Shown: piece by piece, positions 46,307-58,130 of the stretch
Layout of the letters: the number at the start of each line of letters is the position of its first letter
How positions within the stretch are numbered: the stretch's first letter is position 1
DNA from: Candidatus Methanomethylophilaceae archaeon
GTDB lineage: Archaea > Thermoplasmatota > Thermoplasmata > Methanomassiliicoccales > Methanomethylophilaceae
Length of the DNA stretch: 64,000 bases
Direction: 5' to 3'
NCBI GenBank assembly: GCA_944320495.1
Contig: CALUHR010000003.1
Location: 64,001-128,000 of the forward strand
Notes under the pieces: generated by a model
The model's database searches: none
What the model was told of the DNA's origin: nothing
What the model saw: the letters and a program-made list of their open reading frames with translations, nothing else
Program-made: the position numbers and the translations under genes

Positions 46307-46495
46307 ATGATCAAAGGCCCGCTGGTGTATGCAGCAGTCGCCCTGGCATTCATCCTCATCGCGATGTCGTTCGTCATCGCCGCCTTCCCCGATATGATCG
46401 AGACCCTCGGCATCATAACCGCGGTGGTGGCCGTCCTCGTCGTCATAGTCCTCGTCGGCATCCTGATCAAGACCAGGAGGGGTTCCGGCGAGCGA
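46307..46495 (+). CDS. Small two-TM membrane protein; proposed end at CGA 46493-46495
   Basis: Two hydrophobic helices, then KTRRGSGE. The standard-code ORF runs on 175 aa over the ArsR gene. Confidence 0.55.
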
Positions 46496-46553
46496 GGACG
46501 TCTGCGACGTCCCCGAGATACACGGGGACCGCGTCACCAGAGCCAGATCCTCC

Positions 46554-46838
46554 ATGCCCAGCCCCGAGATGGTCGAGGGGCTGGCAGACTTCTTCAGCAT
46601 TTTCGGCGACAGCACCCGCGTCAGGATCCTCCTGGCCCTCGACACCGGCGAGATGTGCGTCTGCGACATCAGCGAGACACTTGGCATGTCCATGTCCGCC
46701 ACATCGCACCAGCTCAGGATGCTGCGCGAGGCCCATCTGGTCTCCTCCCGCAGGGAGGGGAAGAACATATTCTACTCGCTCTGCGACGACCATGTCAGGG
46801 TCGTGCTAGAGACTGCCGTCGAACATCTCAGTGAATGA
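46554..46838 (+). CDS. ArsR/SmtB (CadC-like) metalloregulator; in-frame EDVCDVPEIHGDRV upstream suggests a start near 46488 without a canonical start codon
   Basis: FFSIFGDSTRVRILLAL...MCVCDISE...SATSHQLR.L...RREGKNIFYSLCDDHV. Confidence 0.88.
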   Translation: MPSPEMVEGLADFFSIFGDSTRVRILLALDTGEMCVCDISETLGMSMSATSHQLRMLREAHLVSSRREGKNIFYSLCDDHVRVVLETAVEHLSE

Positions 46839-46982
46839 TGCGACTGCGGATTCCGCAGCGCACATCCCATGTCGGTGCATGGGTCCCGTCCCATGAAACA
46901 CGACTACGGATTTCGTAGCGGTCCGACACTGCCACTGGCTCTTCCTTTAATATAATGCTCGCGATACGGAATCCGATGGGAC

Positions 46983-49067
46983 ATGAAGGTTGGGATAGAC
47001 CTCGGCACAACGTACTCTGCAGTCGCAAGATATGACACCAAGAATAGCAAACCCGTGATAATCCCGAACGCGTTCGGCAAGGAGATCACGCCGTCCGTCA
47101 TCTGCTTCCTGGATGACGGGGACATCCTCGTTGGAGAGGACGCCAAGGACATGCAGTCCAACGGAACCGGGGTCAATGCCGCCGCGTTCAAGAGGAACAT
47201 GGGCGACGGGTCCATCGCTGTGAGCTTCAACGGCAAGGACTACACCTCGGAGGACCTCAGCGCCATGCTGCTCAAGCATCTGATCCAGGATGCCGAGCGC
47301 GCCACTGGCGAGAAGGTCGACGAGGCCGTCATCACGGTGCCCGCCTACTTCAACGACTTCCAGAGGACCGCGACCATCAGGGCCGGCGAATCCTGCGGCG
47401 TGAAGGTTCCTAAGATCATCAATGAACCGACCGCGGCCGCGATCTCGTACGGGTACAAGCACTCCAACGACAAGACGCTCATGGTCTACGACCTCGGAGG
47501 CGGGACCTTCGACGTCACCATCGTCAGGATCAGCAAGGGCAACATCGAGGTCATCGGTACGGACGGTAACCACATCCTCGGAGGAAAGGACTGGGACGCG
47601 GCCATCGTCAAGTACGTCTGCGACCAGTTCATCGACGAGTATGACGTCGACCCCAGGGACGACCTCCCCACCAAGAACGAGCTCATCGTCGCCGCGGAGG
47701 GGTACAAGAAGACCCTATCCATCGCCGAGAGCGTCACCATACCGATCAACTACGAGGGATACAGCGCCAAGTACACCCTCACCAGGGACGAGTTCGAATC
47801 CATGACCGAGCACCTCCTGGAGGCCACCAAGGAGGTCTGCCTGAACCTCATGGGCGACCTCGGCCTCGCCTGGACCGATATCGACGAGATCCTCCTCGTG
47901 GGAGGCTCCACCAGGATGCCCGCCGTCGCCAGATTCCTCAGGGACCTCACCGGCAGGGAGGTCATAGCCCACAGCGACACCGACCTGGCCGTCGCCAAGG
48001 GGGCCGCCATCGTCAGCGAGCTCTACAACAGCAAGGCCACCGGCCTCAGGGCCGAGATGACCGTCATCGACGTCACCGCCCACTCCCTCGGAGCCCTCTC
48101 GGTCTCCCCGGACGGATCCAAGTTCGTCAACGAGATCATCATCAAGAAGAACTCCAAGGTCCCGTGCACCGCCAGCAGGCAGTTCACCATCAAGAAGGGC
48201 AACATGACCGATAGGATCGAGGTCTACACCCTGCAGGGCGAGTCCAGGATGCCTTTGGACTGCAACGTCCTCGCCAAGGTGGTCATCACCGGGTTCTACA
48301 ACAACGGCCAGGGCCTCAACGTCGACATCGAGTACAACTACGATCAGAACGGCGTGGTCAACATCGCCGCCTACCAGGACGGGGAACCCCTCACCGTGGA
48401 GGCCCAGCCGATAGACGAGGACATCAGGTGGATGGGCGGAAGCCCCAAGAACAGGCGCAGCGACGAGTGCATCCTCAAGAACATCGCCATCTGCGTCGAC
48501 CTGTCCAGGAGCATGGACGGCGAGCCCATCGAGCGCGCCAAGGCCTCCATCCGCGATTTCGTCAACACCCTGCAGAACGATGACACCTACTTCTCGCTCA
48601 TCGGGTTCGGGGACAAGATCAAGGTCGTCCAGGACCTCAGCAACGACCCCCGCGCCGTGCTCGCGTCCATCGACGAGCTCAAGGTCAAGATGGTCGGCAG
48701 GGGAACCGACGCCAGCCCCCTCGACACCGCCCGCTCCATGCTCGGCTCGAAGCCGGGTGTCGGCATCATAGTCGTCCTCACCGACGGCATATGGGGAAAG
48801 AGGGACCGCGCGGTCGAGCAGGCCATCGGATGCAGGAACGACAACATCACGATCATCGCCGTCGGTCTCGGAGAGGCGGACACGTCCTTCCTCAGGCAGA
48901 TCGCCACCGTCGACGACGGAGCGCTGTTCACCACCATCGACAGGCTCGGGGACACCTTCGGAACCATCGCCACCGCGATCTCCTCCGGCAGCATGGGCCT
49001 GTCCGTCCGCGAGGGCGGAACCGGGCTCGCCGTGAGGCAGTCCACCAGGATGCAGTCCCGCGAATGA
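46983..49067 (+). CDS. Hsp70/DnaK-family protein fused to a C-terminal von Willebrand A domain
   Basis: GIDLGTTYS, TVPAYF, INEPTAAA, YDLGGGTFD, LVGGSTRMP; then vWA with MIDAS DLSRSM, GRGTD and VLTDG. Confidence 0.9.
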   Translation: MKVGIDLGTTYSAVARYDTKNSKPVIIPNAFGKEITPSVICFLDDGDILVGEDAKDMQSNGTGVNAAAFKRNMGDGSIAVSFNGKDYTSEDLSAMLLKHLIQDAERATGEKVDEAVITVPAYFNDFQRTATIRAGESCGVKVPKIINEPTAAAISYGYKHSNDKTLMVYDLGGGTFDVTIVRISKGNIEVIGTDGNHILGGKDWDAAIVKYVCDQFIDEYDVDPRDDLPTKNELIVAAEGYKKTLSIAESVTIPINYEGYSAKYTLTRDEFESMTEHLLEATKEVCLNLMGDLGLAWTDIDEILLVGGSTRMPAVARFLRDLTGREVIAHSDTDLAVAKGAAIVSELYNSKATGLRAEMTVIDVTAHSLGALSVSPDGSKFVNEIIIKKNSKVPCTASRQFTIKKGNMTDRIEVYTLQGESRMPLDCNVLAKVVITGFYNNGQGLNVDIEYNYDQNGVVNIAAYQDGEPLTVEAQPIDEDIRWMGGSPKNRRSDECILKNIAICVDLSRSMDGEPIERAKASIRDFVNTLQNDDTYFSLIGFGDKIKVVQDLSNDPRAVLASIDELKVKMVGRGTDASPLDTARSMLGSKPGVGIIVVLTDGIWGKRDRAVEQAIGCRNDNITIIAVGLGEADTSFLRQIATVDDGALFTTIDRLGDTFGTIATAISSGSMGLSVREGGTGLAVRQSTRMQSRE

Positions 49068-52000
49068 GGTTGAGGGAATTGGCTTCAAGACAGAACTACT
49101 GCCAGCTGCTCGGGCTCAACCCGCTGAAGGAGTCCTCCTACAGCACCGAGTCCATCCTCAAGAAGATAGAGGCGAAGCGCGGCAAGTGGGCCAACGACAG
49201 CAGGAACAAGCAGAACGACACCGAGCAGCGCTTCAAATCCGAGCGCCTGGTCGAGATGACCTCCGACATGGAGGAGGTCTTCAAGGACCCCAGGCGCAGG
49301 CGCGACGAGTTCAGCAAGGGCCAGGAGGTCCTCAAGGGCAAGGTGCAGAAACTCAGGATGGACTGCGTCATCCTGTCGGACGGGACGTACATCGCCCTGC
49401 CCGGCGCCGCCGACGCGTACACGAAGAAGCTGCACTGGGAGGGCGTCGCCAAGGCCGACGTCCTCAGGCTCGCCGGCATCAAGGACGGGACCCCGCCCAA
49501 GCCGGTCAGCGACAAGGTGCTCAACGCCTACAAGGGACTACGCGCCGTCGACACCTACACGCCGGTCGAGATGCTGAACGCCCTCATCAACCACCCCAAC
49601 CTGGAGATCGACGTCCCGCCGCTCACAGAGGGCAGCTCCTACTCCCAGATCCGCAACGCCTTCGACGTCTGCGAGAAGAGGGTCAACAGCGTCCGCCCGG
49701 ACGTCCTCCCGGAGCAGGACTCCTACATCCAGTCCATGAGGGGCGTCAAGCTCGTCCTGGAGCCGGACAGGGAGCTCGCCACGCTGATATCCTACGGTAA
49801 GTGCAACCGCGCCCTGGTCCCGGTGATGGAGACCCTCGAGCAGGAGTACTCGTCCCAGTTCAACAGGCAGTACATAGACCAGCTGCTGGGAGCGCACCTG
49901 ACGCGCGACGTCGACAGCGGCATGGCGATCCAGATCCTCCAACAGTTCTGCTACAAGAAGAAGATCGCGGCCAACTTCTCCGACACCGAGAGCAGCATGA
50001 TCCGCTGCTCCGAGTGCGGTCAGATGGTCCCCGCCGGACCGAACACCGTGTTCTGCCCGGCGTGCGGGAAGAACTTCAAGACCGTGTGCCCCGCGTGCGG
50101 CACCTCCCAGCAGTCCAAGAACACCGTCTGCATCAAGTGCGGGTTCAACTTCAAGGAGGGTCAGCAGAAGGCCGACCGCCTATCGATCGACTTCCGCATG
50201 AGCATGCAGGCCGGCAAGGTCGCCAAGGCGGAGAAGGCCCTCACCCAGCTCAAGGCCACGTTCCCGAGCTTCGCGGGCATCTCCACCATGGAGCTCGACC
50301 TGAAGCGCGCCCAGGACGAGATAGCGGCATCCCGCAAGTACGTCATGGACTCGTACAACCGCAACAGGTTCTACGAGGCCAAGACCTCGGCGGAGGCGCT
50401 CGCCGCCAAGTACCCGGACGCCCTGGAATCCGACCTGGAGCTGAAGCAGAAGGCCGCGGACGCCAACAACAGATACAACGCCGCGGAGGTCTACTGCAAG
50501 AAGGCCGTGACGGCCGAGTCCAGACAGGCCCGCATGGCCCAGTACGTCGCCGCCGCGGAGATCTGCCCCGACCACCCGGTCGCCAGGAGCAAGCTCAGGG
50601 AGAGCCCGCCGTCCGGACCCGCCGACCCCGTCGGCACCATGAACGACCGCTCGTTCACCATCAAGTTCGAGCCGCCAGCAGAGGCTACCGGAGTCACATA
50701 CTGCATCTACAGGGAGAGGAACTCGCTCCCCGTCGTCAACGAGGACGCCCGCCCCCTGGCGGAGATCCCCACCACGGTCTACGTGGACAAGACGCTGGAC
50801 CCCGGAATCGAGTACTACTACTCGATCCACTCCAAGCGCTGGGGCATCCTCTCGAAGGAGGGCGCCCACATCGGTCCCGTGATGACCATCTCGGAGGTCG
50901 ACAAGGTCAACATAGAGCCCATCGACGGCGGCCTGCGCATCATGTACGAGAAGCCCCGCGGGGCCTCACGCGTGAGGCTCTGGAGGTCGGACGGGAAGGA
51001 CTCGTCCTCCGTGGGCACCGAGATCGCCCTCAACGGCCAGACCGTCTACGACGACATCGGCCTCGTCGGGGGCAAGAAGTACTACTACCTGTTCGTCGCG
51101 GAGTACGAGGGTCGCAACAAGGTCGAGCGCTCCCAGGGAGTGGTGTTCAGCGAGACCACCGTCGACGCCCCCAAGCCCGTCCGCGACATGAAGATCAAGT
51201 GGAACAAGACGGACGGCACCTACACCGCCAAGTGGAGCACTACCGAGCGCGTCCTCCTCTACTCGTCCCCCAAGAAGATCGCCATTTCCGGCAGCATGGT
51301 CAGCATGGAGGACGTGAAGGCCTGGATGACCGAGATCAAGCCGATCGCGGAGTACTCCGACGGGGTCAAGTTCGCTCTCCCCGACGGCGCCGTGCAGTAC
51401 ATCTACCCGATCATCCCGCGCGGCCGCGTCGGCATCCGCGGGACCGAGACCCTGGTGGCCAACCTGAAGCCCTTCAGGGACGTGGAGTGCGTCCTGAGCA
51501 ACAAGGACTGCGTCATCACCATGGGATGGCCGGCGGACGCCGTGGAGGCCAAGCTCGTCATATCCAACGGCACCGAGGCCAGGAGCCTCGACGACATCGA
51601 CGCCGAGATCGTCACCGTGCGCCGCGAGGAGTACATGGAGGACAAGCAGATCCGCATCCCGATGGGCAAGGCCCGCAAGAAGTGCATCAACATCTTCGCG
51701 GTGTACATGCTCGGCAACGAGATGCGCCCATCCAGGGGCATCGTCGTGGACATCAACTCCGGTGACAGCAAGAAGGTCCGCTACACCGCCAAGCGCGTGC
51801 GCGGCGGCGCTGACATCGAGGTGTCCACCGAGCCCGGCGTCTACGAGCTCCCGGCGATGATGCTCGTGCAGACATCCACTGGGATACCGCTGAAGCGCAC
51901 CGACGGGGAGGTCGTCTGGAGGTCCGGGGGACCGGTGCCTCTGCAGAACGGCCGCGGCGTGATCGAGGCCCGCGGGGATATCGAGGACGTGAAGAGGTGC

Positions 52001-52072
52001 AGGCTGTTCCTGGAGAACGACGCCGACTACTTCGACTACAGGTTCGTGCACCCGCTCTACAGGGAGGGATGA
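49064..52072 (+). CDS. ~1002-aa multidomain protein: degenerate J-like domain, helical region, triple CxxC Zn-ribbon, TPR-like helices, Fn3-like repeats
   Basis: ATGA overlap with the upstream gene. NYCQLLGL...EQRFK...EVFKDPRRRRDEF; CSEC, CPAC, CPAC, CIKC; DKTLDPGIEYYYSI and DDIGLVGGKKYYYLFV. Confidence 0.75.
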   Translation: MRLRELASRQNYCQLLGLNPLKESSYSTESILKKIEAKRGKWANDSRNKQNDTEQRFKSERLVEMTSDMEEVFKDPRRRRDEFSKGQEVLKGKVQKLRMDCVILSDGTYIALPGAADAYTKKLHWEGVAKADVLRLAGIKDGTPPKPVSDKVLNAYKGLRAVDTYTPVEMLNALINHPNLEIDVPPLTEGSSYSQIRNAFDVCEKRVNSVRPDVLPEQDSYIQSMRGVKLVLEPDRELATLISYGKCNRALVPVMETLEQEYSSQFNRQYIDQLLGAHLTRDVDSGMAIQILQQFCYKKKIAANFSDTESSMIRCSECGQMVPAGPNTVFCPACGKNFKTVCPACGTSQQSKNTVCIKCGFNFKEGQQKADRLSIDFRMSMQAGKVAKAEKALTQLKATFPSFAGISTMELDLKRAQDEIAASRKYVMDSYNRNRFYEAKTSAEALAAKYPDALESDLELKQKAADANNRYNAAEVYCKKAVTAESRQARMAQYVAAAEICPDHPVARSKLRESPPSGPADPVGTMNDRSFTIKFEPPAEATGVTYCIYRERNSLPVVNEDARPLAEIPTTVYVDKTLDPGIEYYYSIHSKRWGILSKEGAHIGPVMTISEVDKVNIEPIDGGLRIMYEKPRGASRVRLWRSDGKDSSSVGTEIALNGQTVYDDIGLVGGKKYYYLFVAEYEGRNKVERSQGVVFSETTVDAPKPVRDMKIKWNKTDGTYTAKWSTTERVLLYSSPKKIAISGSMVSMEDVKAWMTEIKPIAEYSDGVKFALPDGAVQYIYPIIPRGRVGIRGTETLVANLKPFRDVECVLSNKDCVITMGWPADAVEAKLVISNGTEARSLDDIDAEIVTVRREEYMEDKQIRIPMGKARKKCINIFAVYMLGNEMRPSRGIVVDINSGDSKKVRYTAKRVRGGADIEVSTEPGVYELPAMMLVQTSTGIPLKRTDGEVVWRSGGPVPLQNGRGVIEARGDIEDVKRCRLFLENDADYFDYRFVHPLYREG

Positions 52073-52073
52073 G

Positions 52074-53339
52074 ATGGCCAGGAAACAGAAGGAGACTTCC
52101 AGGGAACCGTCCAAGGAGTACATCTGCCCGTACTGCTTCGCCAAGGTGGACCTGTCGCAGGTCCACTACATCTGCTCGGGACAGACCTGCGCGAGGACCT
52201 TCGCCGCCACAGCGTCCAGCACCAGGAGCGCGGACGCCGCGAAGTACGTCACCGCGGACGGCCAGAACGAGATAGACTACGAGAAGAGCCTGTTCTACGG
52301 GAGGGACCCACGCGGACCCCAGGCCGTGATCGCAAAGAACCACATCATCAGGAACTCCTCCGGGGTCTGCGACGTGTGCAGGCGCCCGGTGTACACCCGC
52401 GTGTGCCCCGTGTGCCACAACCCCATACCTCCCGGCGCCGAGGAGGAGGGCAACAAGATCTTCGTCATCCTCGGACCCAAGAGCGTTGGCAAGAGCCATT
52501 ACATCGCGGTCCTGATCAACCAGCTCAAGAACTACGTCTCGACGGAGTTCAACGGCGTCCTCAACGCCGCCACTGACAAGACCACCCTGAAGTACCGCGA
52601 CATGTACTACAGGCGCCTCTTCGAGGAGAAGCGCAAGCTCCCGGCCACCAAGTCATACGATGTCTCAGACGACAGCAGGGAGCCTCTGATCTACTACCTG
52701 AGGCTGTTCGACTCCGAACGCCCGAAGGTCTTCACCTTCGCGTTCTTCGACACCGCGGGAGAGGACCTTGTGTCCTCCGACAAGATGATGTCCCTGAGCA
52801 TCAACTCGTTCATCTCCAAGGCCGCGGGCATAGTCTACCTGGTGGACCCGCTCCAGATCCGCTACATCAACCAGAGGATCCATGTCGACGGGAAGCCGCC
52901 GGTGGGACCCGACGTGTCGGATGTCCTGAACAACATCTGCCAGATAATCAGGACCAACAACAAGCTCAGCCCCAAGGCCAAGATCGACATCCCACTCGCC
53001 GTCGTCCTGACGAAGGCGGATGTCCTGCTCAAGAACCCCGAGGACGAGGAGGAGGACAAGGTGCTGTTCGGACAGTGCTCGTCCATCCACATCCCCAGGG
53101 AGCACGGGAAGGTCGACAACGAGAACTTCGAGCAGATCGACGCCGAGCTGACCGAGTACCTGCACAGGTGCCTCGGCGACAACTTCATCCAGACCGTGGG
53201 AGGCTTCGAGGACCACTGCTACTTCGCCGTGTCCGCCCTCGGATGCAATCCCGTGGGGAGCAGCCTGCCCAGGGGCGTAACGCCCATGAGGGTGGAGGAC
53301 CCGTTCATCTGGCTGCTCAGCAAGGAGGGACTCCAGTGA
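52074..53339 (+). CDS. TRAFAC-class GTPase with N-terminal Zn-binding region (double-GTPase/DO-GTPase-like)
   Basis: CPYC...CDVC..CPVC; G1 GPKSVGKS, G3 DTAGE, G4 TKAD, G5 VSALG. Confidence 0.82.
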   Translation: MARKQKETSREPSKEYICPYCFAKVDLSQVHYICSGQTCARTFAATASSTRSADAAKYVTADGQNEIDYEKSLFYGRDPRGPQAVIAKNHIIRNSSGVCDVCRRPVYTRVCPVCHNPIPPGAEEEGNKIFVILGPKSVGKSHYIAVLINQLKNYVSTEFNGVLNAATDKTTLKYRDMYYRRLFEEKRKLPATKSYDVSDDSREPLIYYLRLFDSERPKVFTFAFFDTAGEDLVSSDKMMSLSINSFISKAAGIVYLVDPLQIRYINQRIHVDGKPPVGPDVSDVLNNICQIIRTNNKLSPKAKIDIPLAVVLTKADVLLKNPEDEEEDKVLFGQCSSIHIPREHGKVDNENFEQIDAELTEYLHRCLGDNFIQTVGGFEDHCYFAVSALGCNPVGSSLPRGVTPMRVEDPFIWLLSKEGLQ

Positions 53340-54157
53340 ACGATAACACCAACAACCGTCTCAAGAACTTCCTGATCTACGGGCCGCAGGTGCCCCTCCC
53401 GAGGGAGAGCCCCGAGCCTGAGACCGTCATCACGGAGGAGACCTCCATGGAGCAGGCCGAGATGCCCGTCCGCGAGGAGGTCCCGGCCCAAGCGCCGGAG
53501 GCCCCCGCCTTCGACGGCGCCGTCCTCGAGTCCCTGGAGTCGCAGCTCGCGGAGATCCGCGGGATGCTCGAGGAGCTCGGCTCCCGCCCGACGGTCCCGG
53601 ACCTGACTCCCTACATGACCACTAGGGAGCAGCAGAAGGCCCTCTCGGCCACTATCTCCAAGATCGAGACCTCATCGAGCAACAAATCCCTGGTCAAGGC
53701 CATGGAGCAGATCAGCACCATGAGGGAGGACTTCCTGAGGCTATGCAAGGACATGCGCCCCCGCATCTCGGAGATGGACCCGGAGATGGTCCTCTCGAGC
53801 TTCGAGGCGTACTGCGTCGACATGGAGAACATCCTGACGGACGTCGGAGTCTACATCGGGAGGTTCGAGTTCGACAAGCTCAACACACTCCACCAGCGTA
53901 TCGTCGGTGTCGTGCCGACCGGCGAGAAGGAGAAGGACGGCACTATAGCCGAGAGGCAGTCCGACGGTTACAAGCTGGGCGACAAGGTCCTCCTCAAGGA
54001 GAGGGTCTCTGTCTACAAGTACGATCCAAGCTTTGGCACTCCGGATGCCCCAGAGGTAGAAACCCCTTCAGAAACCGCAGAAACCGCTTCCGAAACGTCT
54101 TGCGATGGCGGGGACGGCCCCGAAGGCTCGCCCGTCACAACGGAGGAAAAGGAATGA
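53336..54157 (+). CDS. GrpE-like nucleotide exchange factor
   Basis: GTGA overlap. Coiled-coil N-terminus, then LNTLHQRIVGVVPT...DGTIAERQSDGYKLGDKVLLKERVSVY, which matches the GrpE C-terminal pattern. Confidence 0.75.
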   Translation: MNDNTNNRLKNFLIYGPQVPLPRESPEPETVITEETSMEQAEMPVREEVPAQAPEAPAFDGAVLESLESQLAEIRGMLEELGSRPTVPDLTPYMTTREQQKALSATISKIETSSSNKSLVKAMEQISTMREDFLRLCKDMRPRISEMDPEMVLSSFEAYCVDMENILTDVGVYIGRFEFDKLNTLHQRIVGVVPTGEKEKDGTIAERQSDGYKLGDKVLLKERVSVYKYDPSFGTPDAPEVETPSETAETASETSCDGGDGPEGSPVTTEEKE

Positions 54158-55719
54158 CAGACTATAGCATCGGCATAGACCTGGGCACGACCTACTCGTG
54201 CCTTGCCTATATCGACGAGGATGGGGACCCGGTCGTTGAGAAGAACTTCGAGCAGGAGGACACAACGCCGTCCGTCATCCTATTCAACGAGAACGGGGAG
54301 ATCATCGTCGGATCCCCCGCCAAAGACATGGCAATGATGTATCCCCCCGAGAGGGTCATCACCTCGATCAAGAGGCAGATGGGAACCGACTACGAGGTGG
54401 ACATCGACGGGGAGAAGTACAACCCCATCATGCTGTCCGCGGTCATCCTCAGGAAGATGATCAACGACTTCAACGAGAACCACGGATGCGACGTCAAGAG
54501 GGCCGTCATCACCTGCCCCGCCTACTTCGGACAGAACGAGAGGGACACCACCAAGACCGCCGGCACCATCGCCGGACTCGACGACGTCACCGTGATCAAC
54601 GAGCCCACCGCCGCCGCCATCTCCTTCGGATTCGGCAACGCCGGCGAGGGCAAGAAGAGGGTCCTCGTATACGACCTCGGAGGAGGAACCTTCGATGTAA
54701 CCATCCTCGAGATCGACGGCACCGCGTTCACCGCCGTCGCCACCGACGGAGAGAGGCTCCTGGGAGGAAAGGACTGGGACGCGGCCATCTCCAAGATCAT
54801 CAAGGAGAAGGTCGCAGAGGAGATCGGCGTCGACGTCGAGTCCATCGACGAGGACGAGGAGGTCAGGCAGGCCCTGATCAACGACTCCGAGACCATCAAG
54901 AAGAGGCTCTCCACCGCCGAGTCCACCAAGGGAACCCTCACCGTCAACGGTCAGAAGGTGGTCTTCACCGTCACCAGGGACGAGTTCGAGGCCGCCTCCG
55001 CCAGCCTGATCCAGACCACAGTCGAGATCATCGAGCGCGTCCTCGCGTCCAAGGAGTTCGCGATGTCCGACATCGACGACGTCATCCTCGTCGGTGGATC
55101 CTCCAGGATGCCCCAGGTCAAGAACGCCATCGCCGCCAAGTGGCCCGACGCCCAGATCAAGGTCTTCGACCCCGACCAGTCCGTCGCCAAGGGTGCCGCC
55201 ATCTTCGCGCAGTCCAACGCCGCCGAGCCCGTCGTCAACCCCACCACCGGGGCCGTCGAGCCTCCCGCGGAGGGTGTCCTGAGCGTCCACAACGTCCTGA
55301 GCAAGACCTTCGGAATCAAGGCCATGTATGAGGACGGAACCGAGATGATCTCCAACATCATCTTCAGGAACGAGGTCCTGCCCATCGAGTCCGTCAAGAC
55401 CTACTACCCCGTCGATGACGGACAGACCACCATCAAGGTCGAGATTTACGAGGACGCCGCCATGAACAACGAGGAGGGCAAGAAGACCGCCGTCATCGAC
55501 GCCGCCCCCGTCGGAGAGTTCATGATGGACCTTCCCTCGCAGGTCACCAAGAACACCCCGATCACCGTGAAGTTCACCGCCACCGACGAGGGTATCCTCA
55601 TCGCCTCGGTCGACTGCATGGACCAGCACACCGACTATCAGATCGAGAACGACCTGAAGATGTCCGCCGACGACATCGCCAAGTCCCAGGGTCTGATGGA
55701 GAAGGTTACCAACGCCTGA
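54154..55719 (+). CDS. Second Hsp70/DnaK-family protein (521 aa, lacks the helical lid)
   Basis: GIDLGTTYS, TCPAYF, INEPTAAA, YDLGGGTFD, LVGGSSRMP. ATGA overlap. Confidence 0.9.
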   Translation: MTDYSIGIDLGTTYSCLAYIDEDGDPVVEKNFEQEDTTPSVILFNENGEIIVGSPAKDMAMMYPPERVITSIKRQMGTDYEVDIDGEKYNPIMLSAVILRKMINDFNENHGCDVKRAVITCPAYFGQNERDTTKTAGTIAGLDDVTVINEPTAAAISFGFGNAGEGKKRVLVYDLGGGTFDVTILEIDGTAFTAVATDGERLLGGKDWDAAISKIIKEKVAEEIGVDVESIDEDEEVRQALINDSETIKKRLSTAESTKGTLTVNGQKVVFTVTRDEFEAASASLIQTTVEIIERVLASKEFAMSDIDDVILVGGSSRMPQVKNAIAAKWPDAQIKVFDPDQSVAKGAAIFAQSNAAEPVVNPTTGAVEPPAEGVLSVHNVLSKTFGIKAMYEDGTEMISNIIFRNEVLPIESVKTYYPVDDGQTTIKVEIYEDAAMNNEEGKKTAVIDAAPVGEFMMDLPSQVTKNTPITVKFTATDEGILIASVDCMDQHTDYQIENDLKMSADDIAKSQGLMEKVTNA

Positions 55720-55725
55720 TCATCC

Positions 55726-55774
55726 CCGGGCCTTCGGGCCCGGCAAACACCTTACCCGGACGAAGACGTCCGGG
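55726..55774 (+). terminator. Two tandem stem-loops after the Hsp70 operon
   Basis: ccgggcc-TTCG-ggcccgg (55726-55743) and cccggacg-aaga-cgtccggg (55755-55774). Confidence 0.55.
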
Positions 55775-56220
55775 ACACATCTTTTGATAATTCATGACTG
55801 CAAGGCCGCATCCGAAGATCCGAGGCCATGGATCGTGATCGACACTGATGCCGGATTGTTCCGAATTCGGTTGAAACAATCCTTGGTGGAGGGTGACAGC
55901 CGACCGGGAACCCGCTGATGAGGCGGGTCCTTCAGACGGTGATAAGATGATGGGCTTTTTTGAAGCCTAATACCGATCGGCCGTCTGGCACTGTATCGAA
56001 CTGTGGTATAAGAACTTCATTCTGAGGTGTCGACAACGATTACGAAGAAACTCGGAAACCTTGAATAATGAGGACGATAACTGGTATAGTTCTATCCATA
56101 TTGACCACATTATGGACTATGTTTTGAGGGGTTCAGACCTTCGCCGGGATTTGTCTGGCACATGCTGATTCAAACATCAATGAGCCCAACGAGGCCATCT
56201 TACATCCGAGAATGGGTCGA

Positions 56221-56628
56221 TCACTCGGAGCTGCCGGATACGACGATGACGGTGCAGTTGGCGTTCTTGACCACATACGTGGAGACACTGCCCATCAGAA
56301 GCCTGTCCAGGGACGATCTGTTGGACTTTCCGACGATGATGGTGTCACAATCATACCTGTCTGCGACATCCAGGACGGTCTCATCCGGCCTGCCAGTCAT
56401 GATGATCGTATGGGCCAACGCTCCGGCATCTACGGCCATGTCGCGGGCGTTCTCCATGTACTGGCGGATGCTCTCATCGACATCGTCTGGGTCGACCTGA
56501 TCCTCCTTGACAACGGTGAGGATGTAGAGCGGCTGCTCGTACCTCACAGAGTGCTCTATGGCGTAATCCAGCGCACGCTGGCTCATAGGCTTCCCATCAT
56601 ATGCCAGAAGGATGGACATCGCCGACAA
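56221..56628 (-). CDS. Universal stress protein
   Basis: ILLAYDG...ALDYA...G.PDETVL..A..YDCDTIIVG...LLMGSVSTYVVKNANCTVIVV. Confidence 0.92.
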   Translation of the reverse strand: MSAMSILLAYDGKPMSQRALDYAIEHSVRYEQPLYILTVVKEDQVDPDDVDESIRQYMENARDMAVDAGALAHTIIMTGRPDETVLDVADRYDCDTIIVGKSNRSSLDRLLMGSVSTYVVKNANCTVIVVSGSSE

Positions 56629-56726
56629 TATCCCATCACGCGAATAAAATCATTCGCACAAATGTGCCAGTAGTCATAAAAGTGCCCGACGGGCATTGCC
56701 CGTCGGTAAGGGGTTTAGAGAAAGAC

Positions 56727-58130
56727 TCAGAGCCCGTAGTTCTTGGGGTTGTACCTGGGAACGGACTCCTGGAACTCCTTGGTGCAGTACTCGACGAACT
56801 TGTCGGTGTCGTCGGGGAGCTCCTCGAGCTTCTTGATGATGTCGTTGAGGACCTCGAGCTGCTTGTTGGTGAGAGCGAGCTCCTTGGAGTCGTATCCCTG
56901 CTTGAGGATCTTGGCACCGCAGAGACCAGCGGCCTTGGCCCTCATGTAGAGGTCGTTGCCGTTCTCGGCGATGGCCTGTCCGATCATGTAAGCGTGGTCG
57001 TAGGCGAGCACGTAGGCCTCGGGGCCTCTGAACCTGTCGGAGTACATGTACAGGTCCCTGAGGGTCTTCTCCTGTCCCAGCTGGATAGCGGTGTTCATCA
57101 GGGAAGCCTCGTATCCGAGGGAACCGGCCCAGCACTGGACGGAGGTTCCTCCGAACTCGGGGTGGTACTCGACGGACTCGTTGGACCAGAGGTCGCAGCA
57201 CTGGGCGATCAGGTTACCCTGGAGGTCGCAATGGGCACACTGGCAGTTCTTACCCTCCTGAGCGGTGGGCTTTCCGGTGATAGCCTTGACGATGGGTCCC
57301 TCGTATCCGCAGTCCTTGTCAGGTCCGACGGCGCCGGCCTCGCAAGCGGCGAGGGTCCTGGCGGCGGAGATGCACCTGGTGACAGCGGAGAAGGTCCTCT
57401 GGACGTCGTTGTCGAGGTATCCACCGGCCATGAACATGGCGACGTTAGCTCCCGAGCAGTTGGTGTCTCCTCCGGGGATGGTCTTGTGCTTCTTGCAGAT
57501 GTCGACGCACTGCTCCCAGATGTAGGTCATGTCGATGGCACCGAGGTATCCGACACCGAAGAGGAAGGCGACGATGTCACCGTTGGTGACGGCGTAGTCG
57601 GCGAACTCTTTTCCTCCGACGGACTCGACGGAGAAGACATCGGCACCGTTCTCGCAGGCGAACTCGGCGCACTCGAAGAACTTGTGGGCGTAGGCGTGCT
57701 CGGACTTGTCGACCTCGGGCCTGAGTCCCTCGTCAGCCTCACGCTGGTCGGGGATGGTCTGCCTGACGGCGCAGTTCAGTCCGTACTCCTCGTGGAACTT
57801 CTCGCAGATGGCCTTCTGACCGGCGACGACGGGGGCGCACAGCTTCTCCTGGTTCATCTGGGAGACCCACTCGGTCTCGAGCTGGACGTTGGGGAATCCG
57901 GCGGTGACACACCTGTTGAGGATGTCCTTGGAGATGTAGTCGACGTACTCCTTCCTCAGCTTCTCGGGATCCTTCTCGGTTCCGGGCCTGGGGGCGTAGT
58001 TGACCTCGGGGATAACGTATCCGGCTCCGACCTTCAGTCCGAAGCCGTAGGACACGGGGTGCTGGGACGATCCGAAGATCATGTCGTCAGCGTTCTCATA
58101 AGCCATTTTGGTGCATCTAGTAACTGCCAT
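56727..58130 (-). CDS. mtaB: Methanol:corrinoid methyltransferase, copy 1
   Basis: VGAGYVIPEVNYAPRPG, SVESVGGKE, GGDTNC, GPDKDCGYEG, EGKNCQCAHCD, LWSNESVE. Confidence 0.93.
   Translation of the reverse strand: MAVTRCTKMAYENADDMIFGSSQHPVSYGFGLKVGAGYVIPEVNYAPRPGTEKDPEKLRKEYVDYISKDILNRCVTAGFPNVQLETEWVSQMNQEKLCAPVVAGQKAICEKFHEEYGLNCAVRQTIPDQREADEGLRPEVDKSEHAYAHKFFECAEFACENGADVFSVESVGGKEFADYAVTNGDIVAFLFGVGYLGAIDMTYIWEQCVDICKKHKTIPGGDTNCSGANVAMFMAGGYLDNDVQRTFSAVTRCISAARTLAACEAGAVGPDKDCGYEGPIVKAITGKPTAQEGKNCQCAHCDLQGNLIAQCCDLWSNESVEYHPEFGGTSVQCWAGSLGYEASLMNTAIQLGQEKTLRDLYMYSDRFRGPEAYVLAYDHAYMIGQAIAENGNDLYMRAKAAGLCGAKILKQGYDSKELALTNKQLEVLNDIIKKLEELPDDTDKFVEYCTKEFQESVPRYNPKNYGL

Follow-up and report, generated by a model that had tools for sequence, protein, structure and literature searches.

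A GAP1-less archaeal operon encoding two lid-less Hsp70 proteins, a J-like scaffold, a GrpE-like factor and a DO-GTPase: a probable derivative of GAP1-N2-type conflict systems

A class of 'GTPase-centric' conflict systems, defined by a DO-GTPase together with GAP1, has been predicted by Kaur, Burroughs, Iyer and Aravind (eLife, 2020; PMC7159879), who proposed surveillance against invaders as their role. The DO-GTPases belong to the TRAFAC clade, have a glutamate in Walker B and usually carry two N-terminal zinc ribbons; GAP1, with -N2, -M and -C domains, is encoded beside the GTPase or in fusion with it. The GAP1-N2 type also includes a protein with fibronectin type III (FNIII or FN3) repeats, described as 'rapidly evolving', and an HSP70/GrpE theme is set out in sections 27 and 29 of that work. 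The distribution was reported to be patchy, in mobile neighbourhoods with variable effectors, and a subset of the systems was found to contain a second HSP70 without a peptide-binding domain. No experimental study of any member of the DO-GTPase/GAP1/Hsp70 systems was found in the literature that we searched, and the accessible part of the supplement to Kaur et al. (2020) makes no mention of Methanomassiliicoccales. Here, we describe a five-gene operon (genes A-E) from that order. It lies at positions 46983-55719 of a 64,000-nucleotide stretch of contig CALUHR010000003.1 (positions 64,001 to 128,000 of the contig), which was analysed as a whole and is referred to as the window. The host is a methylotrophic gut methanogen of the Methanomethylophilaceae, with a 1.77-Mb genome and an assembly that is 90.6% complete.

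The operon is probably a GAP1-less, chromosomally fixed archaeal derivative of the GAP1-N2-type DO-GTPase systems with the HSP70/GrpE theme, and would constitute a self-contained nucleotide-gated machine. With the exception of GAP1, its products fit the description of that theme gene for gene. Gene A (46983-49067, 694 amino acids, aa) encodes a lid-less Hsp70 fused to a von Willebrand factor A (vWA) domain, gene B (49064-52072, 1002 aa) a scaffold with J-like, zinc-ribbon, tetratricopeptide-repeat (TPR) and FN3 parts, gene C (52074-53339, 421 aa) a DO-GTPase2, gene D (53336-54157, 273 aa, with a GTG start) a GrpE-like protein and gene E (54154-55719, 521 aa) a second lid-less Hsp70. All five genes, and the features within them, are on the + strand. 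Genes A and B overlap at an ATGA junction, B and C are separated by a 1-nucleotide (nt) gap, C and D overlap at GTGA and D and E at ATGA; A-E form one tightly coupled operon. A first-pass annotation, made from the sequence by a model, had described the same three overlaps and single gap, and the coordinates and junctions are as it stated. It had also named the double-GTPase/GAP1 systems as a comparison, which proved apt in view of the homology to their HSP70/GrpE theme. None of the five proteins contains a hydrophobic segment long enough to form a membrane helix.

Protein A matches the Pfam HSP70 family (2.8e-112), the match reaching position 488 of 599 in the model, and the Pfam VWA family (1e-17, residues 500-649). 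Its Hsp70 part, comprising the nucleotide-binding and beta substrate-binding domains, extends from residue 1 to ~470 and is followed by the vWA domain at residues 500-650 (48480-48932). The ATPase motifs DLGTT, DLGGGTFD and GGSTR are present, as are the DLSRS (506-510) and TDG (600-602) motifs of a metal ion-dependent adhesion site (MIDAS). Across 21 archaeal and metagenomic homologues the ATPase and MIDAS residues, D506, S508, S510 and D601 among them, do not vary. Judged from these motifs and domain boundaries, a vWA domain with an intact MIDAS replaces the helical lid in protein A, which scores 369 bits against the NCBIfam DnaK equivalog (cut-off 648). Protein E matches Pfam HSP70 at 1.3e-93, and its residues 5-510 correspond to positions 4-506 of the 625 in the NCBIfam DnaK model (315 bits, with the same cut-off of 648). 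Since the HSP70/DnaK match stops at about position 506-515 of the DnaK model, protein E is also without a helical lid. Both proteins keep the beta substrate-binding domain. The motif and profile matches agree with the earlier description of two Hsp70s that retain the ATPase motifs and lack a lid, the first with a MIDAS vWA domain.

Protein B begins with a J-like head (residues 1-100, 49064-49363), recognized by structural search of a model, and a conserved helical module (residues 101-310, 49364-49993). These are followed by a double zinc ribbon (residues 311-362, 49994-50149; Pfam DZR 2.1e-07) with four CxxC motifs at 315-359, by TPR-like helices (residues 363-545, 50150-50698), for which the TPR matches are weak both in B and in its homologues, and by an array of about five FN3 domains (residues 546-1002, 50699-52069). 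The protein was modelled in two pieces, residues 1-310 and 540-1002, from orthologue alignments. The 540-1002 model consists of about five beta sandwiches (predicted local distance difference test score, pLDDT, 88.6), and the best Foldseek match is to fibronectin FN3 repeats 7-10 (E 1.3e-10, probability 1.00). The 1-310 model is compact and confident (pLDDT 92.3). In an exhaustive VIA-align search against 48,161 PDB representatives, J domains or J-type co-chaperones were placed at ranks 1-5, 7, 8 and 10, aligned with residues ~1-95 of B. They include DNAJB8 (Z 6.2) and HscB (Z 6.1, root-mean-square deviation 3.6 over 75 residues); further matches are to a mouse DnaJ-like protein, RAC/zuotin, dnj-2, human HscB and a mitoribosome factor, with Ydj1 at rank 11. 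The Z values of the J-type matches range from 4.9 to 6.2 overall and from 5.1 to 6.2 for the eight in the top ten. Our model thus suggests, with moderate support, that residues ~1-95 fold like a J domain, and the enrichment for J-type structures is striking.

The pattern NYCxLLGLNP...KW-AND of the B head lines up with DYYxxLGV...KY-HPD of DnaJ, with AND at residues 43-45 in place of HPD. The HPD motif is required for J-domain stimulation of the Hsp70 ATPase. It is absent from the N-terminal module in all of the 149 best B-family representatives; the sole HPD match among them is in a 473-aa fragment that corresponds to the TPR/FN3 part. Classical J-domain stimulation is therefore unlikely, and holding or scaffolding more likely. 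Two distant B homologues give sub-threshold matches to Pfam DnaJ, at residues 7-67 (P0201, E 0.0064) and 160-220 (P0155, E 0.001), from which it appears that the ancestral B may have had two tandem J-like domains. The annotation had anticipated both the J-domain-like start and the rest of the layout, with AND for HPD, CxxC ribbons, TPR-like helices and Fn3-like repeats; the motifs, the DZR match and the FN3 structure match that outline, and eight of the top ten structures are J-type.

B is a member of a large family whose proteins are ~1000 aa long and form 893 clusters at 50% identity (E <= 1e-30), and the source names of its close homologues include Methanomethylophilaceae or Thermoplasmata archaeon. 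Faint Pfam matches to Fn3_SaeA_2nd/3rd occur among B homologues; a literature search for a link between SaeA and an Hsp70-GTPase system found none. The best profile match of the J-like head, 7lsv (E 0.025), was rejected as an unrelated helical protein. In the second copy of the system in one genome of another genus (L047), the frame of the B homologue stays open for ~1,370 codons across the GTPase gene, which is read in another frame; a frameshift in the assembly, or a frame left open by chance in G+C-rich DNA, is the probable cause.

Protein C is a TRAFAC-clade DO-GTPase2 (PF19993, 34.7 bits, cut-off 27). It carries G1 (GPKSVGKS), G3 (DTAGE), G4 (TKAD) and G5 (SAL) motifs, DTAGE being the Walker B motif with the glutamate of the DO-GTPase family. 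CxxC pairs at residues 18, 99 and 111 mark two N-terminal zinc ribbons (residues 18-114, 52125-52415), and the GTPase domain spans residues ~128-390 (52455-53243). A GTPase with these four motifs and a Zn-binding N-terminus had been noticed at first reading, in agreement with the family match.

Protein D is a predicted divergent GrpE, an assignment in which three weak lines of evidence concur. Its Pfam GrpE match (5.6e-05, 23.3 bits) is below the cut-off of 25.8, BLASTP aligns it with the genome's own GrpE at 2e-05, and a profile of 14 D orthologues finds Geobacillus GrpE (4ANI) as the sole significant PDB match (E 3.9e-04), over almost the whole length. The conserved core comprises residues ~90-230 (53603-54025); the N-terminus and tail are of low complexity and acidic. 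The possibility that D is a degenerate GAP1 was ruled out, since D matches GrpE and paralogous loci have both GAP1 and a D homologue. In five genomes of one genus (L036, L056-L059) the operon has just four genes, in the order Hsp70-vWA, B, GTPase and Hsp70, and only ~110 nt stand in place of the GrpE-like gene.

GAP1 models give no match in the five operon proteins even at E <= 10, and neither GAP1-N2 (PF20013) nor GAP1-M (PF20014) has a match in the genome, as far as its 90.6% complete assembly shows. GAP1-N2 was found in just one of 121 Methanomethylophilaceae genomes. That these models can recognize GAP1 is shown by their matches in paralogous and metagenomic loci. The first-pass annotation had seen neither GAP1 nor an effector gene here, and indeed no effector gene is encoded in the operon.

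Homologues of all five proteins are present in GAP1-bearing loci. Six metagenomic contigs with B homologues, which carry no taxonomic assignment, were sampled. Three have the order GrpE, Hsp70, Hsp70-vWA, B and DO-GTPase2, with GAP1 (N2+M) directly after in two of them; a fourth has Hsp70-vWA, B and two GAP1-N2 genes in another arrangement, and the remaining two are too short to tell. The core order Hsp70-vWA, B and GTPase is found in four of the six (L050 in part), and a fifth has an extra gene between. Neighbours in the metagenomic loci include an integrase, transposases, and a TIR protein or a colicin-DNase/WHH toxin. These contexts indicate that the Hsp70-vWA fusion and the A-B-C core order are features of the known systems, not archaeal inventions. 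Closer to the host, three genomes of the same genus contain paralogous second systems with a true GAP1 (N2+M; L045, L046 and L048), in the order two or three DO-GTPases, GAP1, Hsp70-vWA, B, GrpE-like and Hsp70. We presume that this GAP1-bearing arrangement is the ancestral archaeal one.

Of 113 family genomes, 80 have a match to the operon GTPase, whereas 87 genomes from the order's other families gave none. Five genera have it in every genome sampled (39/39, 16/16, 9/9, 6/6 and 2/2), as does one genus represented by a single genome; at least five family genera, each with several sampled genomes, have no match. The gene order A-B-C-D-E is conserved at 13 loci from six genera and A-B-C-E at all five loci of one further genus. 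A gene-order survey was suggested in the first-pass annotation, with conservation nowhere as the outcome that would count against it; the order is retained at these 18 family loci and the A-B-C core also in the metagenomic contigs. Upstream of all 12 primary loci, across genera, there is a Sel1-repeat gene, a small regulator gene or both.

The Hsp70-vWA proteins were placed in a maximum-likelihood tree. In it, the archaeal clade without GAP1 (13 rows, support 100/99) follows the genera, and the operon has therefore been inherited vertically. Its sister group is formed by the archaeal paralogues with GAP1 (100/98), and both stand apart from the metagenomic sequences. On the simplest view, a system with GAP1 was acquired once, and then lost GAP1 and was rearranged before the family began to diversify. 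We compared rates of divergence using five genomes with DnaK 81-92% identical to that of this genome. The identities to the five relatives are 46-88% for A, 47-90% for E, 39-80% for C, 30-74% for B and 38-53% for D; the operon proteins evolve much faster than housekeeping DnaK. Within B, change is fastest in the TPR-like region, and the FN3 array does not outpace the N-terminal module.

A second DO-GTPase2 is encoded outside the window, on contig C9 (L019:2501-4120, +, 29 bits). About four N-terminal membrane segments are followed by zinc ribbons and then the GTPase, a layout that matches the second GTPase of the two-GTPase systems (PMC7159879). Orthologues occur in 43 of 121 family genomes, solely in operon-carrying genera. 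At 16 loci from four other genera the gene lies ~5-7 kb from the operon GTPase gene; in the mapped loci it is convergent, about 2-4 kb past the 3' end of the operon, with pirin and pseudouridine-synthase genes in between in two annotated loci. In the host genus it is 30-500 kb from the operon. Because related genomes are not independent, this co-occurrence is suggestive rather than proof, and a pair of soluble and membrane DO-GTPases is plausible.

We infer the choice of partners, the gating of the ATPases by GTP and the biological output of the scheme that follows. With B as the scaffold, the operon products would probably form an assembly machine that is self-contained and gated by nucleotides. 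Through its FN3 array and TPR-like helices, B would bind a target or further copies of the machine, and its N-terminal module, with the HPD-less J-like head, would dock the Hsp70-vWA protein A without HPD-driven stimulation of the ATPase. The vWA MIDAS of A, in place of the lid, might clamp an acidic partner peptide, for which the acidic tails of D are candidates. The zinc-ribbon GTPase C would be the on/off switch, probably paired with the membrane-anchored second DO-GTPase, and the GrpE-like protein D would reset the second lid-less Hsp70, E.

Complex prediction of the J-like domain with each Hsp70 had been put forward as a check in the first-pass annotation. The run with full-length A and residues 1-305 of B gave a score of 0.46, with 0.00 for the best control; three runs had at least 81% of contacts in common, with partner pLDDT of at least 85. 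The mark applied was reached by 58 of 80 solved complexes and two of 110 mismatched pairs, and at scores of 0.60 or below it was reached by just seven of the 80 solved complexes and by both of the mismatched pairs that passed. The prediction lends weak support to an A-B(1-305) complex, and its pass may reflect likeness to, or memory of, solved J-domain/Hsp70 structures.

Several observations weigh against our assignment and the scheme drawn from it. The published model, in which GAP1 coordinates the GTPase, cannot apply as written where GAP1 is missing, and the operon has no effector, no membrane segment in A-E and no PADLOC match. The parent systems are described as patchy and mobile, whereas the operon is stable within its clades and stays at a syntenic site. 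With respect to the head of B, the structural Z scores are modest (5-6), which is the reason that we regard the J fold as moderately supported. Pfam DnaJ (PF00226) gives no match to residues 1-309 at E <= 10, a profile of the head from 23 orthologues finds no J domain among PDB sequences, Foldseek finds no match to the 1-310 model in the PDB with E <= 0.001, and the residues at the HPD position vary among B orthologues. The idea that the FN3 array is a hypervariable sensor is weakened, since it is not the fastest-evolving part of B. Finally, the loss of the GrpE-like gene in one genus means that nucleotide exchange by D is dispensable there.

What the machine does is a separate matter from its ancestry. 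Of the roles that we considered, active immunity against viruses or other invaders of the kind proposed by Kaur et al. (2020) fares best, and we hold it tentatively. In this case the FN3/TPR part would sense a viral protein, the GTPase would be turned on and the lid-less Hsp70s would polymerize or sequester. Homologous systems are found in mobile, defence-like contexts with integrase, transposases, TIR and colicin-DNase/WHH proteins; the operon proteins change faster than DnaK (A 46-88% and B 30-74% identity against 81-92%) and some genomes have extra paralogous copies. Against this, the locus occupies a syntenic site and occurs in every sampled genome of several genera, and such stable vertical inheritance fits an ordinary defence island poorly. 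Its neighbours in the window are FeoB, Sel1-repeat genes, ArsR, mtaB, mtaC and a second mtaB (methanol:corrinoid methyltransferase), and nothing around it there resembles a defence island. Neither an effector nor GAP1 is present, the FN3 array varies no more than other parts of B, and PADLOC returned no matches for the five proteins, although its library appears to be without models for DO-GTPase systems.

Alternatively, a former conflict system may have been domesticated, minus its sensor and coordinator GAP1, into a lineage-specific cellular machine for membrane-proximal assembly or quality control, or of a cytoskeleton-like nature. We rank this role nearly as likely as anti-invader surveillance, and on its own account somewhat unlikely. 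The tree that follows the genera, the syntenic site and the presence in all sampled members of five genera are what it would predict, as are motifs under purifying selection, a conserved FN3 array and co-occurrence with the membrane-anchored DO-GTPase paralogue. The machine is not essential, since at least five multi-genome genera and the other families have no match, and its rates are high for a core function. No client or pathway has been linked to it; adjacency to mtaBC is otherwise found in a same-genus locus only, and a functional tie to mtaBC was rejected on this ground. A more specific form of the proposal is more doubtful: that in one family of gut methanogens the conflict system became a stable GAP1-independent machine in which soluble and membrane DO-GTPases gate the two lid-less Hsp70s via the HPD-less J-like scaffold. 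If it were true, there would be in archaea an Hsp70 cycle for which GTP, and not a classical J domain, is the switch. Ordinary Hsp70 in archaea is a bacterial import.

The remaining alternative, that A-E are the housekeeping DnaK/DnaJ/GrpE system in an unusual form, is excluded: although both Hsp70s have all of the ATPase motifs and GrpE-like and J-like proteins are encoded, a canonical grpE-dnaK-dnaJ operon lies on another contig (C13:428094-430722; DnaK 696, GrpE 148 and DnaJ 99 bits), A and E reach 369 and 315 bits where the DnaK equivalog requires 648, both are without a lid, B is without HPD and many relatives carry no such operon. The existence of the canonical locus makes the window operon an accessory one, distinct from housekeeping dnaK as the first-pass annotation had proposed. 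Contig C9 carries a further accessory pair (L019:15164-17301, +), in which a divergent Hsp70-like gene (161 bits) comes after a GrpE-like gene (26.7 bits). Genes for a TraG/VirD4-type coupling protein and for a Sel1/TPR-S protein of 956 aa lie next to this pair, which may belong to an integrated mobile element.

The AT-rich promoter placed near 46940 by the first-pass annotation corresponds to the sequence TTTAATATAA at 46946-46955 (+ strand, read directly), a putative archaeal TATA box. It is positioned 28 nt before the ATG of gene A, so that the transcript would be leaderless or have a very short leader. At the other end, the twin hairpins noted earlier were recovered by RNA folding as G+C-rich hairpins in tandem at 55726-55743 and 55755-55774, followed by TTTT at 55782-55785 (all + strand). 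Their folding energy is -32.2 kcal/mol (z -4.36), and none of 200 shuffles was as stable; together with the T run they probably mark the end of the transcript and would act as a terminator.

Some features of the surrounding DNA and of codon use may be recorded here. An ArsR/CadC-type metalloregulator gene with an ELCVCD-like motif (46470-46838, +) ends 145 nt 5' of gene A. In the conserved N-terminal part of this gene, no ATG, GTG or TTG start is available ahead of an internal Met at 46554, and a small open reading frame (ORF) from 46307 that encodes two transmembrane (TM) segments precedes the gene. In other genera a matching antisense-frame signal recurs 5' of the operon. Between the terminator and the convergent mtaB gene there is an unusually long spacer of ~940 nt (55790-56727) with a lower GC content (about 53%), in which a search for Rfam families, tRNA and Pfam-matching ORFs found none. 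Within the operon itself, in-frame CGA and CGG are absent from the 2,911 sense codons of A-E (46983-55719), in which arginine is encoded by CGC (64), AGG (84), AGA (5) and CGT (2); the trinucleotide CGA occurs 264 times in all frames of the same segment. The missing in-frame CGA is compatible with CGA as a non-sense codon and equally with a strong codon bias.

What is new is the minimal GAP1-less archaeal variant of a parent system that is known by computation alone. With five soluble proteins (four in one genus) and no GAP1, effector or membrane part, it is the most minimal natural version that we found, and this make-up provides a practical starting point for reconstitution and structural work. 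Such studies could reveal the working of an Hsp70 that has a vWA domain for a 'lid', the part played by a J domain without HPD, and whether a GTPase can gate an Hsp70 cycle. Fixation of the operon in host-associated methanogens also raises the question of whether 'immune' modules turn housekeeping.

Like the HSP70/GrpE theme, the operon has a DO-GTPase2 that bears the Walker B glutamate and two zinc ribbons at its N-terminus, a protein in which FNIII repeats are joined to a DnaJ-like domain and TPR, and the set of HSP70, GrpE and second HSP70; a TM-bearing second DO-GTPase is present in the genome, as in the two-GTPase systems of Kaur et al. (2020). It differs in that GAP1, a defining core component, is absent, the GrpE-Hsp70 pair occupying the place after the GTPase where GAP1 normally stands. 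The operon proteins have no TM segment, there is no variable effector, and both Hsp70s retain the beta substrate-binding domain. The host is an archaeon, the locus is passed on vertically and keeps a syntenic site where the parent systems are mobile, and there is no hypervariability in the FN3 array.

Comparison with the canonical DnaK-DnaJ-GrpE system shows the Hsp70 ATPase motifs, beta substrate-binding domains, a GrpE homologue and a J-fold domain in common, whereas the operon Hsp70s have no lid and in one case a vWA domain, the J-like head has no HPD and the scores are far below the equivalog cut-offs. In the MoxR-vWA pairs of chaperone and co-chaperone (such as RavA-ViaA and CoxD-CoxE) and the vWA 'ternary' conflict systems (PMC7159879) a MIDAS vWA domain is likewise coupled to a conformation-driving NTPase; in the operon, however, this NTPase is an Hsp70 fused in cis rather than an AAA+ MoxR protein, and there is no VMAP or iSTAND third component. 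A parallel for the head of B is offered by mitochondrial Pam16/Tim16. That protein has an HPD-less J fold and regulates or scaffolds an Hsp70 machine rather than activating it. It has no detectable sequence relation to B, in which the head is part of a compact 310-residue module accompanied by zinc ribbons, TPR-like helices and FN3 domains.

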